A stretch of 64,000 bases of DNA from a virus, in the IMG/VR virus record IMGVR_UViG_3300022602_000036, positions 32,001 to 96,000 of that record; one strand, given 5' to 3'. The notes under the pieces were generated by a model. That model was not told the DNA's origin. It worked only from the letters and a program-made list of their open reading frames with translations, and ran no database searches. The translations under genes and the position numbers were made by a program. Numbering within the stretch: the stretch's first letter is position 1; every line of letters starts with the position of its first letter. Of this stretch, positions 7,472 through 37,900 are shown in pieces.

Positions 7472-7696
7472 ATGAAAACCCTGGCAGACCTAGCCGTTGG
7501 CCAAGTAGCAGTGATCAAAGCCTTAGCGTTTGATGATCTAGGTTACCATAAGCGACTATATGGTCTAGGACTGCGAGAGGGTAAAGAAATAAAAATTATT
7601 AGAAAGGGGTTGACAGGTAGCCCACTTCATGTTATAATAGGTACTACTGAATTAGCAATTCGTCAAAAAGAGGCGAAAAATATACATATATTTTAA
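7472..7696 (+). CDS. feoA: FeoA-family protein
   Basis: TLADLAVGQ...KRLYGLGLREG..IIRK..GSPL...LAIRQKEA. Confidence 0.85.
   Translation: MKTLADLAVGQVAVIKALAFDDLGYHKRLYGLGLREGKEIKIIRKGLTGSPLHVIIGTTELAIRQKEAKNIHIF
7610..7638 (+). promoter_or_regulatory. sigma70 consensus promoter inside feoA
   Basis: TTGACA-N17-TATAAT. Confidence 0.7.
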
Positions 7697-7733: not shown

Positions 7734-7762
7734 TTGACACAGTTTATATTAGACTGTATAAT
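7734..7762 (+). promoter_or_regulatory. sigma70 consensus promoter of the tRNA-array leader
   Basis: TTGACA-N17-TATAAT with A-rich upstream sequence. Confidence 0.9.
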
Positions 7763-8630: not shown

Positions 8631-9041
8631 ATGAAGTATTTTAATTGTTTATGTTGCGGAAAAGAAAATATCATTAAAGGCTATAGTTATACAGGAAAAT
8701 ATTGTAATAACAAATGTCAAGCAACACATCGCACAGCTAAATGGTTTGAAGATAATAAATTATTGTTTGAACAAGGTTTACTTAAGCATAGATCAGCAAT
8801 TAAAAAGTTTGTTAAATTAAGAGATGGTGAAATGTGTTCTATTTGCGGACAATCGCCAGAATATAATAACAAGCCGTTAGTTATGATTATAGATCATATT
8901 GATGGTGACGCAAGTAATAATATGCCGGATAATTTTAGATTAGTGTGTCCAAATTGCGACTCGCAGTTAGATACATATAAAGCACGAAATATAGGAAATG
9001 GTCGTGCTACTAAAGGTATGAAATGGTATAGTAGTTTATAA
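8631..9041 (+). CDS. HNH homing endonuclease
   Basis: CSICG...DHIDGDASNNMPDNFRLVCPNC. Confidence 0.9.
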   Translation: MKYFNCLCCGKENIIKGYSYTGKYCNNKCQATHRTAKWFEDNKLLFEQGLLKHRSAIKKFVKLRDGEMCSICGQSPEYNNKPLVMIIDHIDGDASNNMPDNFRLVCPNCDSQLDTYKARNIGNGRATKGMKWYSSL

Positions 9042-9127: not shown

Positions 9128-9156
9128 TTGACAGCATTGTCTGTTAGCTATATAAT
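9128..9156 (+). promoter_or_regulatory. sigma70 promoter internal to the tRNA array
   Basis: TTGACA-N17-TATAAT. Confidence 0.8.
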
Positions 9157-9442: not shown

Positions 9443-9518
9443 TCCGGTCAAGCAAACACGGTGTAGGCGGTGGACTGTTAATCCATGAAGGTTGGTTCGA
9501 TTCCAACGACCGGAGCCA
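9443..9518 (+). tRNA. tRNA-Asn(GTT)
   Basis: GTGGA-CT-GTT-AA-TCCAT, GCCA end. Confidence 0.9.
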
Positions 9519-9525
9519 TTTTTAT

Positions 9526-9599
9526 AGTCTGTTAGTTCAATGGGAGAACAGTCGACTGATAATCGACAAACACTGGATCGTAACCAGTACGGACTACCA
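9526..9599 (+). tRNA. tRNA-Ile(GAT)
   Basis: GTCGA-CT-GAT-AA-TCGAC, T-loop ATCGTAA, CCA. Confidence 0.9.
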
Positions 9600-9604
9600 A
9601 GTAT

Positions 9605-9790
9605 TCCAACCACATCGCGTTTAGGGTGAAGTAGGGCGTGCCAATAAAACCCTGTAAGATCAAAAATACCTACCAAGCAAGGAGGAATCACAGCGCAAGC
9701 TGAAGAACAATGTGGTGACTTGCTACCCGGGAGAAAGCTGTAACATTACGTATTCGAGGTTAGGAGAGTACAGCAAACCGCCCACTTATT
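9605..9790 (+). ncRNA. Putative pseudoknotted ncRNA of unknown class
   Basis: Several complementary helices with crossing pairings in a ~185-nt inter-tRNA spacer. Confidence 0.55.
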
Positions 9791-9792
9791 TT

Positions 9793-9882
9793 GGAAGCGT
9801 GGCAGAGCCTGGCTGATTGCACCTGTCTTGAAAACAGACAAGGGGAAACCCTTCGTGAGTTCGAATCTCACCGCTTCCGCCA
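9793..9882 (+). tRNA. tRNA-Ser(TGA)
   Basis: CT-TGA-AA, long variable arm, GCCA. Confidence 0.9.
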
Positions 9883-9893
9883 AATATTTTTAT

Positions 9894-9985
9894 CCTTCTG
9901 TAGTTCAATGGTAGAACGGCTCCCTTATAAGGAGTGAGTGCTAGATAAGCCGCTAATGGGGGTTCGAGTCCCTCCAGAAGGACCA
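9894..9985 (+). tRNA. tRNA with TAT anticodon (Ile, AUA-reading) and long variable arm
   Basis: GCTCC-CT-TAT-AA-GGAGT, ~22-nt variable region, ACCA. Confidence 0.85.
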
Positions 9986-10275: not shown

Positions 10276-10331
10276 ACCTAATTAAAATGGTAGCACAGCA
10301 GTTTTGTATAAATAATATAGTGGAGATAAAA

Positions 10332-10934
10332 ATGTTCTATATTATATACAAGACTACAAATTTAATCGATAATAAAATTTATGTCGGATCGCACCAAACT
10401 AAAGAGTTGAATGACGATTACTTAGGGTCCGGAAAGTATCTTAAGCGTGCTATTTCTAAACACGGAAAGCAAAATTTTACTAAAGAGATTTTACATGTGT
10501 TTGACAATAAACAAGACATGTTTAATAAAGAACGCGAAATAGTAAATGAAGAATTTGTTAAGGATACAAATACATACAATTTCAAAATAGGCGGCTCGGG
10601 TGGTAATCCAGGCATTGTGGGTGCATTTTCTGGTAAAAAACATTCGCAAGAGTCGATTGAAAAAATAAGATTGTCTGCCCTTGCCCAAGGAACAACAGAT
10701 GAAAAAAGAAGAAAATGTTCTGTTAATAATTGGGCAAAACAAGACCCAGACGCATTTAGAAAACACGCATCACGCATAAACAAAGATATCCCTAAAACAG
10801 ATACACATAGAAATGCGCTAGCAAAGGCACAGCTAGGACGAAAGATGATGAACAATGGTACAGTATCTAGTTTTATTAAAGCTGATGATATAAATGAATA
10901 TTTAGAAAAAGGGTGGACACTAGGCCACCATTAA
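10332..10934 (+). CDS. GIY-YIG (Seg-like) homing endonuclease with NUMOD3 motif
   Basis: IIYKTTNLIDNKIYVG, YLGSG..LKRAI.KHG..NF, GKKHSQES; GGAG RBS before ATG 10332. Confidence 0.9.
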   Translation: MFYIIYKTTNLIDNKIYVGSHQTKELNDDYLGSGKYLKRAISKHGKQNFTKEILHVFDNKQDMFNKEREIVNEEFVKDTNTYNFKIGGSGGNPGIVGAFSGKKHSQESIEKIRLSALAQGTTDEKRRKCSVNNWAKQDPDAFRKHASRINKDIPKTDTHRNALAKAQLGRKMMNNGTVSSFIKADDINEYLEKGWTLGHH

Positions 10935-12023: not shown

Positions 12024-12052
12024 TTGACATTTTGATTAAATGACTGTATAAT
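12024..12052 (+). promoter_or_regulatory. sigma70 promoter
   Basis: TTGACA-N17-TATAAT; ATG 6 nt downstream. Confidence 0.85.
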
Positions 12053-12812: not shown

Positions 12813-12996
12813 GCAACAACCAAGTTGGGTTGAGACACGAGAAGCTCTTCGTACACATGTTGAGGAGCCTCCTGTGTTTGTAGGAGAAATGGGCGTCGCA
12901 GGAGTTATAGATGGTCTATTACCCAACGGTGAACCATATGGTTGGTATAAACGTCGTGGTACTAAAGATACCAAGTTCAAAGGCAGGAAAGTTTAA
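12802..12996 (+). CDS. Hypothetical protein
   Basis: ORF track; internal ATG chosen. Confidence 0.6.
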   Translation: MTSKQQPSWVETREALRTHVEEPPVFVGEMGVAGVIDGLLPNGEPYGWYKRRGTKDTKFKGRKV

Positions 12997-14077: not shown

Positions 14078-14548
14078 ATGAAAAAATTAGACATCAATTA
14101 TGTCCGTGATTACATAGAATCACAGAGCGCAGAAACCAAAGTCTACATTGGTGGAGACAGCCGTCGTTTCCGTAAAAATGGCAAATGGTATGCTGAATAC
14201 ACCTTGGCAGTGGTTGTACACCTTAACGGTAAAAACGGCTGTAAGATCTTTGGTGAAAGCTCAGTTGAAGTTGACTATGATCAAAAGCGTAGTCGTCCAG
14301 CTATGCGTCTAATGAACGAAGTATATAAGATTTCAGAACTATACCTTAAACTGCACGAAGTATTAGAAGATCGTGAAGTTGAAGTTCACTTAGACATTAA
14401 CCCTGATGAAATGCATGGGTCAAGCTGTGTGGTGCAACAAGCAATTGGTTATATCCGTGGTACCTGTAATGTCATACCATTGGTTAAACCAAATGCGTTT
14501 GCGGCTAGCTATGCGGCAGACCGTCTACATCACGTAGTAAATGGTTGA
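14078..14548 (+). CDS. RNase H-like YkuK-family protein
   Basis: VYIGGDS, RLMNEV, EVHLDIN, KPNAFAASYAAD. Confidence 0.8.
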   Translation: MKKLDINYVRDYIESQSAETKVYIGGDSRRFRKNGKWYAEYTLAVVVHLNGKNGCKIFGESSVEVDYDQKRSRPAMRLMNEVYKISELYLKLHEVLEDREVEVHLDINPDEMHGSSCVVQQAIGYIRGTCNVIPLVKPNAFAASYAADRLHHVVNG

Positions 14549-15545: not shown

Positions 15546-15998
15546 ATGTTATTAATAGAAGAGTATATTAAACAATCTAAAGAAGCAAGGCAACAACACT
15601 TAGTTTTAACGGAGTCTTGCATAGAAAGAGGTGGCCCACAAAAAGGTGGATTATCTAGTTATTGTAAAGGGCTAATGGCCCATGTATTAGATACGAGTAT
15701 CCCAAGTGGACATAAAATACATATATGCCATGCCTGTAACAATGAAAAGTGTAGTAACCCAAAACATTTATATTGGGGCACTGCACAAGAAAATAGAATA
15801 GATCAGGGCAAAGATAATAGTCCTTGGGATAGAATGGTTGCCAAATATGGGTATGAAGAAGCCTGTAAAATGAATGGTAAAAATAAAAAAGGTAATACCA
15901 ATGGGTCAGGTAATAAAGGTAAACCTAAATCAGAAGAACATAAAAGAAAAATTGCCCTTAATCGTAAGGGTGGTAGAAAGAAAAAAGAAACAGTTTAA
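15546..15998 (+). CDS. HNH (His-Cys) homing endonuclease-like protein with NUMOD3 tail
   Basis: HICHACNNEKCSNPKHLYWGT..EN; GKPKSEEHKRKI. Confidence 0.8.
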   Translation: MLLIEEYIKQSKEARQQHLVLTESCIERGGPQKGGLSSYCKGLMAHVLDTSIPSGHKIHICHACNNEKCSNPKHLYWGTAQENRIDQGKDNSPWDRMVAKYGYEEACKMNGKNKKGNTNGSGNKGKPKSEEHKRKIALNRKGGRKKKETV

Positions 15999-16284: not shown

Positions 16285-16497
16285 ATGAATCCAACGACAT
16301 CATTTCTAGTAGTACTACTAATCACAGGCTGTGCTGTCCAGCCTACTCCCGCAAAAAATAATAAGCAAGTTGAAACAACACCAAATAAACCAGCGTACAC
16401 ATTGTACGTACCACCAGAAGAAATATGGCCAGAAGATTATCAATCACCCCCAAAAGTCTGTGCTAGCCCATTTAGAGGAAGTATATTAGAAAGATGA
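16285..16497 (+). CDS. Small putative lipoprotein
   Basis: Lipobox LITGC; TATAAATA 5 nt upstream. Confidence 0.6.
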   Translation: MNPTTSFLVVLLITGCAVQPTPAKNNKQVETTPNKPAYTLYVPPEEIWPEDYQSPPKVCASPFRGSILER

Positions 16498-18518
16498 AAA
16501 ACAAACTTAAGAAAATCTTAGTCAGTCCATGGACTGCTCTCATTACTCTAGCTCTTATTGTAGCTGTAGTGTTTCAAGGACCTACATTTGTAGAAAGTGT
16601 TAGGCTCCGATACTTTGACACACTTATTACCAATCAGAAGCCTACTCAAAATAATATCTATACTGTAAACATAGATGAAGCTACCATAGACCGTTATGGT
16701 CAATGGCCATTTAAGCGTGACATCTATGCTAATCTAATTGATCAAATATACGCCCACAATGCTGGCCTAGTTGTTTGGGACGTATTAATGCCAGAAAAGG
16801 ATCGCCAAGGTGGCGATGCAACACTAGCCACAGTGTTAAGAACACAGGCTAATGTTATTCTTACTAACATGCCCGCACAGACCAGCAAGAATATTCCACG
16901 CAAACCAGGTAGTGCTGTAATTGGTGCAGACTATTTAGATACTATCATTAACTATCCAGGCATTATTGCCAACATTCCAGAATTAGAAAATAATGCCATT
17001 GGTGTTGGTATTGCTAACACTATGCCAGAGATTGATGGTGTTAATCGTCGCTTGCCATTGTTTGTGGGCTATAATGGTGGCTTATATCCCAGCGTTCCTT
17101 TAGAAGTACTGCGTGTTATTAGTAATGATGACACATTCCAAGTTAAGCTAAATGAGAATGGCGTTGAGAAAATGCGTGTGCCTAGCTTCCGTCCTATTAG
17201 TACAGACAGCCTAGGTCGTATCTGGGTAGACTGGAGTCAACAGAGTATTCCTGTATCAGCAGTTAACCTACCTAAAGACTTTAAGAAAGGTATTGTTATT
17301 GTAGGTACCAGTGCCGCAGGTATTGGTAATCCAGTAGCAACATCAAAAGGCAGTGTTTGGCCACAAGACATGCAGGCCGCTGTAGTTGCTACGCTGGCTA
17401 ACAATGTAAATATTGAACGTCCTGATTGGGCTCCTGGTGCTGAACTATTAGCACTTGTAGTTATCTCACTTATTATCCTAATATTATCACGTTGGGTATA
17501 TGTTGGCCTAGGTGTAGGTGTTGTATTAACTGCTAGTTTAATTCCAGCAAGCATGTATGTGTTTGCGCACTACAAGTTCTTAATAGATGCTATTGTGCCT
17601 ACAGCAGGTGTAGTTCTTGTTATGCTACACGCTTATGGTGTTAAGTTTGTTAGTGAATTCTTACAGAAACAACAGATCAAGAAACAGTTTGGCAGCTATG
17701 TTAATCCTACTATAGTAGAACGCTTGCAAAAGAATCCAGAGCTGATCAAACTAGGTGGTGAGCGTAAAGAACTATCAATTGTCATGACAGACCTGCGTGG
17801 GTTTACTACCCTAGGCGAATCGTTTGGTGATGATGTAGAAGGACTTACACAGATCATGAACGACTACATGACAGCACTGAGTATTCCTGTGCTTAAGAAT
17901 GACGGTACACTGATCAAGTTCATTGGTGATGCCAGCCTGCACGTTCATGGTGCTCCATTGGATGATGCTAACCATGCCAAGACTGCGGTACGTACAGCAC
18001 TAGAAATGATTGATGCCATTGCTGATTTCAACAAGGAACTAACAGCCAAAGGTCGTCCACCAGTGGGCATGGGTGCTGGTGTTAACACAGGTGAAACTTT
18101 AATTGGTAACATTGGTGCTAAAAGTAAGTTTGGCTATGATGTCTTAGGTGATAGTGTCAGCACTGCGGCACGTTTAGAAGGACAAACTAAGGCCTATGGT
18201 GTATTACTAATCATTGGACCTAAGACTGCTGAGTATTGTAAAGATGACTTCCCTGTGGTATGGTTAGACAACATTGCTGTTAAAGGCAAAACCATCGGCT
18301 TAGATATCTATGCTGTGGGTCATACAGTCGCATACAAACACGAAGAATATAAGAAAGAATATCTACGTGGCAATTGGGTTGCCGCACTTAAATGGGCACG
18401 TGAACTAGAAGCTGATCCAACTGTAGAAATTAAAGAATACTATCACAAGATGATTGAGCGTCTTGAAGAGGGAGTTCCAGCTAACTGGGACGGCACTTAT
18501 CACGCTACGAGCAAATAA
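16494..18518 (+). CDS. CHASE2-domain class III adenylate/guanylate cyclase
   Basis: CHASE2 (VNIDE..YGQWPF.R, DGVNRR), TM helices, cyclase core TDLRGFT, KFIGDA, GDSVSTAARLEG. Confidence 0.92.
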   Translation: MKNKLKKILVSPWTALITLALIVAVVFQGPTFVESVRLRYFDTLITNQKPTQNNIYTVNIDEATIDRYGQWPFKRDIYANLIDQIYAHNAGLVVWDVLMPEKDRQGGDATLATVLRTQANVILTNMPAQTSKNIPRKPGSAVIGADYLDTIINYPGIIANIPELENNAIGVGIANTMPEIDGVNRRLPLFVGYNGGLYPSVPLEVLRVISNDDTFQVKLNENGVEKMRVPSFRPISTDSLGRIWVDWSQQSIPVSAVNLPKDFKKGIVIVGTSAAGIGNPVATSKGSVWPQDMQAAVVATLANNVNIERPDWAPGAELLALVVISLIILILSRWVYVGLGVGVVLTASLIPASMYVFAHYKFLIDAIVPTAGVVLVMLHAYGVKFVSEFLQKQQIKKQFGSYVNPTIVERLQKNPELIKLGGERKELSIVMTDLRGFTTLGESFGDDVEGLTQIMNDYMTALSIPVLKNDGTLIKFIGDASLHVHGAPLDDANHAKTAVRTALEMIDAIADFNKELTAKGRPPVGMGAGVNTGETLIGNIGAKSKFGYDVLGDSVSTAARLEGQTKAYGVLLIIGPKTAEYCKDDFPVVWLDNIAVKGKTIGLDIYAVGHTVAYKHEEYKKEYLRGNWVAALKWARELEADPTVEIKEYYHKMIERLEEGVPANWDGTYHATSK

Positions 18519-31073: not shown

Positions 31074-32126
31074 TTAAACTATAATTGCGCCAAGAGAATT
31101 TAAAAATTCTCCATACCAATCAGTACCTAACATCAAACTTTGGTTATGCTTTGTTATTGGACTAATTTTAGCTAAAAGTTCTTTCTGAGGTTGACCAGCT
31201 AAGAATTTTATCTGTTCACCAATCATTTGGCATCTGATTTTATAATCAGGTTCTAGATCATAACTTTCATCTATGACCGTGTCAAATGTACGAAATCCCA
31301 ATGCACGTAAGTTACGTAGATAGTATTGATTGCTGGCCACTAAAAATAACCTTTCAGCTAGAATAGGTTTGACGATTTTTTCAGTGTTAAAGGTAAAGCG
31401 ATTATCAATCCCCCATGTTTCTGCTACTACTGTGTAGGCTGTTTGGTTATAAATGCTCAATGGAATGATCTGGCTTAATGAAATTATTTGATTGTAGTAT
31501 TTTACTGGGCGTATAGTATGCCTAATAGGCCAATCAGGAATTTCTAATCCTTCACTTTCCCATTGCCACTCAGTGGCGGATTTTTCTTGAAAACTTTCTG
31601 TTATACTAGATATATAGGTTAGAATAACTTTGTCATCTAGGTTATTGTGTTTGATATAAGAAAATATTTCATCACGATGTTTTCTTTCTTGTCCTAATAA
31701 TATGTCAAAATATTTAGGTTTAGCAGTATAAGGAGTTAACTTGTCTAGTAGAAACTGATTATTTTTATAAAACAACGTAGTAGACTCAAACCAATGATGG
31801 TAGTGATAGTAGGTAGCATGATCTAGTTTGAAATTTAAATCACCATTTAAGAACAGGACTATTTTAGGGCGATCAAACTTTTCAATGAAATCTACAGTGA
31901 CATCGTGTAGTTCTGTGACCAGTAGTATTATCTGCTCACTAGAATCATATATTTGGTTGAAAGTTTCTTCTAAATGATCAAAATCTGAATACCTAGGAAA
32001 GGGCGCATGAAATACTGCGGTTTTTGGCCCTGGCGAATCCATATAAACATTAATATTTTTTACTATGGTAATGTTAGGTAATTCTGCCCAACTATCGCAA
32101 ACACTGGTATCACTATAGATAATCAT
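31074..32126 (-). CDS. Putative glycosyltransferase-like protein
   Basis: VVAET...TEKIVKP...GFRTF..VIDESYD; paralogue of 22559-23833; ATG 32126 inferred. Confidence 0.55.
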   Translation of the reverse strand: MIIYSDTSVCDSWAELPNITIVKNINVYMDSPGPKTAVFHAPFPRYSDFDHLEETFNQIYDSSEQIILLVTELHDVTVDFIEKFDRPKIVLFLNGDLNFKLDHATYYHYHHWFESTTLFYKNNQFLLDKLTPYTAKPKYFDILLGQERKHRDEIFSYIKHNNLDDKVILTYISSITESFQEKSATEWQWESEGLEIPDWPIRHTIRPVKYYNQIISLSQIIPLSIYNQTAYTVVAETWGIDNRFTFNTEKIVKPILAERLFLVASNQYYLRNLRALGFRTFDTVIDESYDLEPDYKIRCQMIGEQIKFLAGQPQKELLAKISPITKHNQSLMLGTDWYGEFLNSLGAIIV

Positions 32127-37269: not shown

Positions 37270-37587
37270 ATGTCTAGAACACGTAGACGTAAGCGTGGCG
37301 ACCACACTGATCTAGCTTGGCAAACTAGAGAAATGATCAAAGTCCCAGGCAGATTAATTTGGGTGCCAATGGACCCAAAAACCAAGCAGTATAAACGAGT
37401 AGTAAACAAGTATCACAGTGATGCAGGCACACATAAGTTTAACAACTGTCCACAAGGATGGTGGGTTAACATGGTAATGCAAAGACCACATCGCCGTGAT
37501 GCTAAAAGAAAAATCCAAAAATGGTTGTTGGATCCAGAGTATGAAGTTATACTAAATGCTAAGGAACCACTTCCATATTGGGATTAA
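37270..37587 (+). CDS. Basic hypothetical protein
   Basis: MSRTRRRKRG...; GAGGAG RBS. Confidence 0.7.
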   Translation: MSRTRRRKRGDHTDLAWQTREMIKVPGRLIWVPMDPKTKQYKRVVNKYHSDAGTHKFNNCPQGWWVNMVMQRPHRRDAKRKIQKWLLDPEYEVILNAKEPLPYWD

Positions 37588-37589
37588 AG

Positions 37590-37900
37590 AATTGTTGTAT
37601 GAAGCGAGTCCAAAAACGGACAAGACACGGGTTCGACTCCCGTCGCCTCCACCAAAGCATTTTTGAAAGAGAGTTTTTCGTTGGGGGTGCCATGGTATCG
37701 ATTGACGGCTTAGTAGGCAAGTGGACAACACAGTAGGCGATGACTGTAAATCAAGCAAAATCCGTAAATGCAAAAGCATCTACACTTGGTACTGTAAAAG
37801 TATCTATGGGCCGCGGTTTCCGCTTTGCTCGTGGTACAGAAGCAGTAGCTGCCTAAGAAACAGCAACCACGGGGCAGTTATGCCTTGTTACCCAAAATAA
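37590..37900 (+). ncRNA. ssrA: Circularly permuted (two-piece) tmRNA
   Basis: T-arm + CGCCTCC-ACCA (ends 37654), spacer, then GGGGGTG 5' strand (37683) giving G3-U70; tag frame 37770-37856 AKASTLGTVKVSMGRGFRFARGTEAVAA*; outer boundaries approximate. Confidence 0.9.

Follow-up and report, generated by a model that had tools for sequence, protein, structure and literature searches.

Giant-phage tRNA arrays are large, and their expression and use are poorly understood. In phage T4, the tRNA cluster gives rise to stable RNAs (species 1 and 2, rnaC/rnaD), which we take to be comparable to the element described here; they are small, co-transcribed with the phage tRNAs and freed by the tRNA-processing enzymes, and we know of no description of them as multi-pseudoknotted. 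The manA RNA typically constitutes the 5' leader of protein-coding genes. GOLLD (RF01998) and ROOL (RF03087) are pseudoknotted non-coding RNAs of phages and prophages, with genes that often adjoin tRNA genes (PMC12286853). The element described here occupies a gap in the tRNA array of an uncultured giant phage and consists of two independent RNA modules, termed D and C, which are arranged in tandem 3 nt apart.

The window analysed, a stretch of 64,000 nucleotides, was taken from a 149-kb IMG/VR virus record (IMGVR_UViG_3300022602_000036, positions 32,001 to 96,000) with a completeness of 42% (CheckV). It contains 28 tRNA genes on the plus strand between 8238 and 16270 (ARAGORN/Rfam). The element's site is the 193-nt gap at 9600-9792, which is flanked upstream by tRNA-Ile(GAT) (9526-9599, plus strand), whose CCA end lies 1 nt upstream of the start of module D, and downstream by tRNA-Ser(UGA) (9793-9882, plus strand), a class II tRNA that usually lies downstream of both modules. 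The gap closes with the 8-nt spacer CTTATTTT (9785-9792, plus strand), which is presumably the RNase P leader of tRNA-Ser and whose last base, a U, directly precedes the G+1 of that tRNA. As the original prediction had stated, no credible ORF spans the gap; there are only short frames overlapping the tRNA genes. A sigma-70 promoter with the perfect consensus TTGACA-17-TATAAT (9128-9156, plus strand; 12/12 matches) is followed by the tRNAs Glu, Ala, Val, Asn and Ile, then by modules D and C, and then by Ser, Ile(UAU), Thr and Gln, and the same scan detected no terminator-like site on the plus strand between this promoter and the element. Perfect 12/12 sigma-70 promoters occur at four plus-strand positions in or just before the array (7610-7638, 7734-7762, 9128-9156 and 12024-12052), suggesting strong transcription units that would be read by the host polymerase.

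The array and its surroundings show several further features. HNH and GIY-YIG homing-endonuclease-like genes lie among the tRNA genes (8631-9041, 10287-10934 and 15546-15998), as does the gene for an RNaseH-like DUF458 protein (14078-14548) with 452 relatives in IMG/VR. The end of the array is adjoined by the gene for a 674-aa protein with CHASE2 and adenylate/guanylate cyclase domains (16494-18518), which shows 50-92% identity in related phages. The tRNA with the anticodon UAU (Ile) at 9894-9985 is 92 nt long and possesses a long class II-like variable arm; a UAU-anticodon (Ile) tRNA with a long variable arm also follows tRNA-Ser in two related loci (L002, L027). A permuted (two-piece, beta-type) phage tmRNA is located at 37539-37890 of the window, and a similar tmRNA is found ~420 nt past one copy of module C in another locus (L018); the beta type of the window's tmRNA hints at a host among the Betaproteobacteria.

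The original prediction had posited a complex, pseudoknotted non-coding RNA of ~185 nt on the plus strand, on the basis of complementary stretches that are all present where it had placed them. The minimum free energy of the plus strand (-43.1 kcal/mol) corresponds to z = -0.17, with 74 of 200 shuffles folding equally well, and the minus strand (z = +1.05) shows no folding signal. Searches of Rfam with the whole window at the gathering threshold, and with the 401 bases of 9500-9900 at E <= 10, recovered no family besides tRNA and tmRNA, in agreement with the earlier suggestion that the RNA might be new to that collection. As the gap folds no better than its shuffles and has no Rfam match, the case rests wholly on homologues. 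A 29-mer from the gap identified three near-identical viral contigs, in which the gap is ~97% identical to that of the window and the downstream tRNA-Ser 70-77% identical. The 19-mer TTCGAGGTTAGGAGAGTAC, taken from the 3' third of the gap, identified 21 viral and 14 metagenome contigs and had no occurrence in 185,579 prokaryote genomes; all the viral loci that were scanned with Rfam or ARAGORN proved to be phage tRNA arrays. The flanks of this 19-mer are unalignable between groups of contigs, indicating that C, which makes up the 3' third, is a separate module. Eighty loci retrieved via the RNaseH-like protein of the array were searched with a covariance model of C, and a degenerate pattern scan came next, giving 28 distinct C sequences in all; a search for relatives through the array methyltransferase yielded none. 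A pattern search with the 3' end of tRNA-Ile recovered only the three closest contigs. Copies of D that diverge more were obtained from L051, L063, L005, L069, L068 and L052, and later from L009, L060 and L065. In a MAFFT alignment of nine sequences 94.2% of the cells are paired and 10 pairs covary, with none of 500 shuffles being as good. G-U pairs appear solely when the plus strand is read, which identifies it as the RNA strand. Thus the element displays helix-preserving compensatory changes across homologues, the general hallmark of structured non-coding RNAs, and together with the lack of an ORF these uphold the prediction of a complex pseudoknotted non-coding RNA.

Module D (9601-9724, plus strand; covariance model R3, 128 bits) is a multi-pseudoknotted RNA domain of ~125 nt. 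The 17 distinct homologues give 597 cells, of which 97.7% are paired, with compensatory changes at 22 of the 38 positions. A null was obtained by shuffling the 3' strands among 14 sequences: the real set shows 98.2% pairing and 22 compensatory positions, versus at most 89.6% and at most 19 in the shuffles. Placing the strands by hand favours pairing, a bias that is limited by their colinearity and by the independent MAFFT-based count; a script found the same strand order in 14 sequences, and the strands of L009, L060 and L065 were placed by eye. The module contains seven helices, with two sets of mutually crossing pairings (X1/H1/H3 and S1/S2/K). Helix X1 pairs ATTCC (9603-9607) with GGAAT (9684-9688), crosses H1 and H3, and is 100% paired over 7 positions, 4 of which covary; its compensatory variants replace ATTCC/GGAAT by ATCTTT/AAAGAT, ATTCTCT/AGAGAAT or ATTTCCT/AGGAAAT. 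Helix H1 (ACCACAT, 9609-9615, with ATGTGGT, 9710-9716) is likewise 100% paired over 7 positions, with covariation at 3. Helix H3 (AGCAAG, 9676-9681, with CTTGCT, 9719-9724), which crosses H1 and X1, is 100% paired and covaries at 5 of its 6 positions. Between the strands of H1 lies the hairpin H4, CAGC-GCAA-GCTG (9691-9694 with 9699-9702; 4 positions, 1 covarying, 100% paired), for which other lineages substitute CAAC...GTTG or CATC...GATG hairpins.

The second crossing set comprises S1, S2 and K. Helix S2 pairs AGGGT (9623-9627) with ACCCT (9649-9653; 5 positions, 2 covarying, 97.6% paired). The 5' strand of helix K, GTAGG (9631-9635), lies inside the S2 loop and pairs with CCTAC (9669-9673; 5 positions, 4 covarying, 95.3% paired), with variants GTAGG/CCTAC, GTAGC/GCTAC, GTGG/CCAC, ACAGC/GCTGT and CGGC/GCCG. 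Helix S1 (CGCG, 9616-9619, with CGTG, 9637-9640; 4 positions, 3 covarying), which crosses both S2 and K, is the weakest helix of the module (88.2% paired) and fails in L065. As all three cross one another, they may represent alternative rather than simultaneous pairings, with S1 perhaps alternating with K. Two other candidate helices were discarded: the hairpin GTA (9654-56)/TAC (9671-73), the 3' strand of which belongs to the far more strongly covarying K, and GTATT/AATAC (9601-05/9665-69), which is not kept in L021 and L022. In one relative (L063) a promoter-like TTGACG-18-TATAAT (12840-12880) overlaps the 3' strands of H1 and H3, and a 24-nt AU-rich spacer separates D from C.

Module C (9728-9784, plus strand; models R1 and R2, 86-88 bits) is a 57-nt pseudoknot closed by a helix, P1. 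In 28 distinct cores 97.2% of the cells are paired, 11 of the 14 pairs covary and none of 500 shuffles is as good; when the partners are slid by one to three columns as a control, pairing falls to 24-47%. P1 pairs CGGG (9728-9731) with CCCA (9781-9784) and has three covarying positions (G-C, A-U, U-A). It is followed by the junction AGAAA (9732-9736), which is invariant in all 28 variants, and by helix P2 (GCTGTA, 9737-9742, with TACAGC, 9769-9774), all six pairs of which covary at 98.2% pairing. The loop L1 (9743-9757) contains six variable bases and then an invariant TATTCG. The pseudoknot helix P3 (GGTT, 9758-9761, with AACC, 9776-9779) crosses P2 and is 100% paired, with two adjacent compensatory changes (GGTT/AACC to GGGA/TCCC) in a single lineage (L073/L074/L075/L139); an initial version of P3 (A9743-U9760, C9744-G9759) was abandoned, as L073 shows that GGTT pairs with AACC. 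The loop L2, AGGAGAG (9762-9768), is invariant in its AGGAGA. The 3' strand of the module (9769-9784) is thus continuous, and its partners are, in turn, three separate upstream segments belonging to P2, P3 and P1. This strand order suggests that the three helices can stack coaxially, with AGAAA spanning P3 to join P1 and P2, and AGGAGAG spanning P2; we propose that these two strands occupy the grooves.

Five of the six pairings of the original prediction hold among the homologues: the helices H1, H3 and H4 of module D and P2 of module C were correctly recognised, and TAGGGT/ACCCTG survives in its core as S2. The pairing proposed between the loop of this hairpin and the far 3' end (AAGT-a-GGGCG with CGCCC-ACTT) does not survive, being 73.6% paired, devoid of compensatory change and broken by every variant. 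Its 3' partner is in reality the 3' strand of P1, which covaries, and its 5' partner falls partly within helices K and S1. Consequently, one of the two pseudoknots originally envisaged, that of H3 crossing H1, is retained and the other is lost, while the first reading had missed five helices, three of them in module D (X1, S1, K) and two in module C (P1, P3).

The invariant stretches of C comprise AGAAA, TATTCG, AGGAGA and a few single bases; 41 of 62 columns are invariant in an alignment of 16 sequences, and substitutions are concentrated in the paired positions and the first six bases of L1. The TTCGA in L1 is not a conserved T-loop, its last A being a U in L073. This weakens a reading of C as a double T-loop of the kind that docks on the tRNA elbow, and a test of the element for tRNA or tRNA-like character (ARAGORN, RF00005) recognised only the flanking tRNA-Ile and tRNA-Ser. 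The idea that the variable part of L1 acts as a specifier codon was dropped, as it is unrelated to the anticodon of the neighbouring tRNA. The presence of near-identical cores within unalignable flanks, the shuffling of the modules among different contexts, and the homing endonuclease genes scattered through the array could all be explained if what is conserved were not a functional RNA but a selfish element or one acting at the DNA level, for instance a cassette for recombination or the target of a homing endonuclease. We consider this most improbable, given the many compensatory double substitutions, the restriction of G-U pairs to one strand, and the concentration of variation in paired positions and one loop segment, a pattern that marks selection on RNA pairing and not recent spread.

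The combination in these modules of small size, pseudoknots and strictly invariant junction bases is typical of small self-cleaving ribozymes, and D begins 0-4 nt past the tRNA CCA end among its homologues. One or both modules might accordingly belong to a new class of self-cleaving ribozymes and serve to cut the tRNA polycistron. The strand order of D, in which X1, H1 and H4 resemble P1, P2 and P4 of the HDV-like ribozymes, is also reminiscent of the latter, in that X1, H1, ..., X1', H4, H1' recalls their nested double pseudoknot. However, the place of the 3-bp P3 and the short loop L3, between H1 and X1', is taken by additional pseudoknots (S1, S2, K and H3) spanning 68 nt, so that the defining core of the HDV-like fold is absent, and no HDV-like model matches. 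A group-I-like reading of the strand order was rejected on similar grounds, the likeness being one of topology, with the defining core absent and no model match. More generally, no ribozyme family matches at E <= 10, and comparison with sequences and models identified no cleavage site or catalytic core in either D or C; the original characterisation of the fold as typical of ribozymes holds as a likeness in complexity. As the distance from C to the 5' end of the tRNA varies, C cannot set that end, and RNase P along with the 3' trimming enzymes already accounts for every cut that is needed. We therefore regard a ribozyme as unlikely.

Module C was found solely in tRNA arrays belonging to a single clade of uncultured phages, of which the only complete genome measures 329 kb. 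All the large records of the clade that were searched whole, whether partial or complete, contain it (G000-G004, G010, G014), as do loci from two more large records (G015, G016). It is absent from five complete phages of ~130-170 kb that possess the array RNaseH-like protein at ~70% identity; the nearest cultured carrier of this protein is the Stenotrophomonas phage DLP6 (62.5% identity). A blastn comparison of the element with 50,697 GenBank phage records returned only three 31-base matches (E ~0.6), all inside protein-coding genes, blastn against these phages gave nothing else but the tRNAs, and the element's sequence was not found in the literature searched. The clade is narrow, and hence many of the variants share ancestry. 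Within it the identity of C is 86-100%, against 55-93% for the adjacent tRNA-Ser gene, or 60-93% for tRNA-Ser(UGA), and the array proteins of the C-bearing phages show 50-92% amino-acid identity.

The phages of this clade display a range of module arrangements. In four loci (L009, L060, L065, L132) D without C lies directly between tRNA-Ile(GAT) and tRNA-Ser(UGA), and C is located elsewhere behind its own promoter. Conversely, C without D occurs in at least four contexts: 1) after a promoter and followed by module B (~95 nt) and an initiator-like tRNA-Met; 2) between a promoter and tRNA-Ser(GCU); 3) after tRNA-Phe and followed by module X (~105 nt) and tRNA-Ser(UGA); and 4) between tRNA-Ser(UGA) and tRNA-Ser(GCU). 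The complete 329-kb genome, which is bounded by terminal repeats (G010), has one C, located only upstream of tRNA-Met, and no D. Thus, what had been taken for a single RNA of ~185 nt is indeed structured RNA filling the gap, but it is made up of two modules (9601-9724 and 9728-9784) that are separable in relatives. Of the companion modules, X (L012:4274-4394; also L005, L021, L044, L051, L063 and L069) is non-coding, shows ~95% identity between lineages, has its own hairpins and a possible pseudoknot, is always positioned between C and tRNA-Ser, and is absent from the window. Module B (L012:995-1086; also L011, L065, L073, L132 and L134) is structured and follows C, and is itself followed by the initiator-like tRNA-Met or by tRNA-Ser. 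In L134 its hairpin is a canonical tRNA T-arm (GCGG-TTCGACT-CCGC).

In some lineages a promoter is positioned ~20-25 nt upstream of C. This placement close behind a promoter, and the compact pseudoknot with an A-rich strand crossing a helix, would suit a riboswitch-type aptamer that binds a ligand and tunes the output of the tRNA operon. On the other hand, there is no expression platform in the form of a terminator, sequestered start site or ORF between C and the tRNA, no riboswitch model in Rfam matches, and the C of the window lies in the middle of a transcription unit. Taken together, these features make an aptamer of this type very unlikely.

In 27 of the 34 copies of C the closest tRNA is tRNA-Ser, with both the UGA and the GCU isoacceptors represented, and in the remaining 7 it is tRNA-Met, while the tRNA on its other side varies (Ile, Phe, Gln, Lys, Tyr, Trp or Asp). 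D and X are likewise found 5' of tRNA-Ser. Shared descent accounts for part of this linkage, but its persistence through many rearrangements suggests that there may be a functional tie. The modules could, for instance, be cis-acting leader elements for the class II tRNA-Ser (and in one lineage for the initiator-like tRNA-Met), which would guide or time tRNA folding, RNase P cleavage or stability and then be discarded. Such a role would account for the constancy of tRNA-Ser, in two isoacceptors, beside an otherwise changing neighbourhood, and for the location of D, even when alone, directly 5' of tRNA-Ser(UGA) and of X always between C and tRNA-Ser. It is also consistent with the distance of just 2-9 nt from the end of C or D to the G+1 of the next tRNA, with a U at position -1, in the copies where no other module is inserted. 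However, inserted modules of 93-127 nt can part C from the tRNA, C lies 3' of tRNA-Ser in two loci (L130, L142), and the tRNA-Ser genes of the complete genome lack C, the sole copy of which is upstream of tRNA-Met. Moreover, an invariance exceeding that of the tRNA itself is above the apparent needs of a folding aid, and shared descent of a block comprising C and tRNA-Ser could produce the linkage without any function. On balance, we view a cis-acting leader as possible but rather doubtful.

Building on the observed structures, strand, modularity, conservation and tRNA-Ser linkage, we tentatively favour, with nearly even credence, a stable RNA that would use the invariant loops of C to engage a partner, either protein or RNA. 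Judging by their position, D and C would be transcribed on the plus strand within the tRNA polycistron, and tRNA processing would probably free them as one stable RNA of ~190 nt, the 5' end of which would be set by the 3' trimming of the upstream tRNA-Ile and the 3' end by the RNase P cut at the G+1 of tRNA-Ser. C might then be the constant functional unit, in which the rigid pseudoknot presents the invariant bases as a binding surface, whereas D and, in other phages, X and B would serve as accessory domains that can be exchanged. More speculatively, the putative partner could be a protein or RNA of translation or tRNA metabolism, with C serving as a scaffold for a ribonucleoprotein or as a decoy; that the RNA acts in trans, and on what, is a matter of speculation, and no protein emerged as a candidate for this role. 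That C, D and X stay so persistently linked to tRNA-Ser counts against a trans-acting RNA, since this fits a cis role more naturally.

The occurrence within tRNA arrays of modules that are steadier than the tRNAs themselves and are tied to tRNA-Ser points to a previously unrecognised RNA player, with candidate roles in the takeover of translation by the phage or in tRNA maturation. We think it improbable that C, alone or with D, represents a new catalytic or tRNA-directed class of RNA. If so, it would be a small self-cleaving ribozyme, or a cofactor recognising the precursors of class II tRNA-Ser or initiator tRNA, and the giant phages would control tRNA maturation for themselves, without reliance on the host. 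The helix coordinates, the compensatory changes and the natural arrangements with D only, C only or both make direct tests possible.

A comparison with known RNAs places the modules apart from any single family. An Rfam scan of 13 related loci recovered only tRNA and tmRNA, and no match to GOLLD, ROOL or any other catalogued RNA. D and C thus match no catalogued RNA family or fold, which by itself does not establish a new mechanism. A survey of structured RNAs in IMG/VR describes 8,495 unnamed candidates (PMC10690425), one of which could correspond to the D and C modules. Among regulatory RNAs, the preQ1-II, SAM-II/V and fluoride aptamers are like C in being compact pseudoknots with a purine-rich strand crossing a helix and invariant unpaired bases; C differs in its additional enclosing helix P1, and none of their models matches. 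RNase P RNA (RF00010) was considered, as the 11-nt string AGCAAACCGCC and several 7-8-mers are common to the element and E. coli rnpB. This kinship was rejected, since 48 of 1000 dinucleotide shuffles align equally well, the shared words are non-colinear and RF00010 does not match. The YrlA-type Y RNAs (RF02553), which associate with Rsr/Ro60, resemble the C family in joining a constant element to variable, partly tRNA-like attachments. Their only match (20 bits, E 0.7) falls over two tRNAs of L012 with none at the element, and no TROVE/Ro60 gene was matched in five phage records, four of which are estimated by CheckV to be less than 50% complete.

Other parallels come from phages. The manA RNA, which the original prediction had put forward as a possible identity, resembles D and C as a structured RNA associated with phages and at times located close to tRNAs, but its model does not match at the gathering threshold or at E <= 10, and there is no ORF at the element for which it could provide a leader. 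The T4 stable RNAs show no blastn similarity to the element among the 50,697 GenBank phage records. GOLLD and ROOL share with D and C a non-coding nature, elaborate pseudoknots, a phage origin and a neighbourhood of tRNA genes, whereas they are ~400-800 nt long and form homo-oligomeric cages, as against ~125 nt for D, 57 nt for C and 193 nt for the entire gap, and their models do not match. By context and style, GOLLD and ROOL, together with the T4 RNAs, are nonetheless the nearest known counterparts of the element, and D and C enlarge the small repertoire of natural ornate RNAs by two compact pseudoknot folds.
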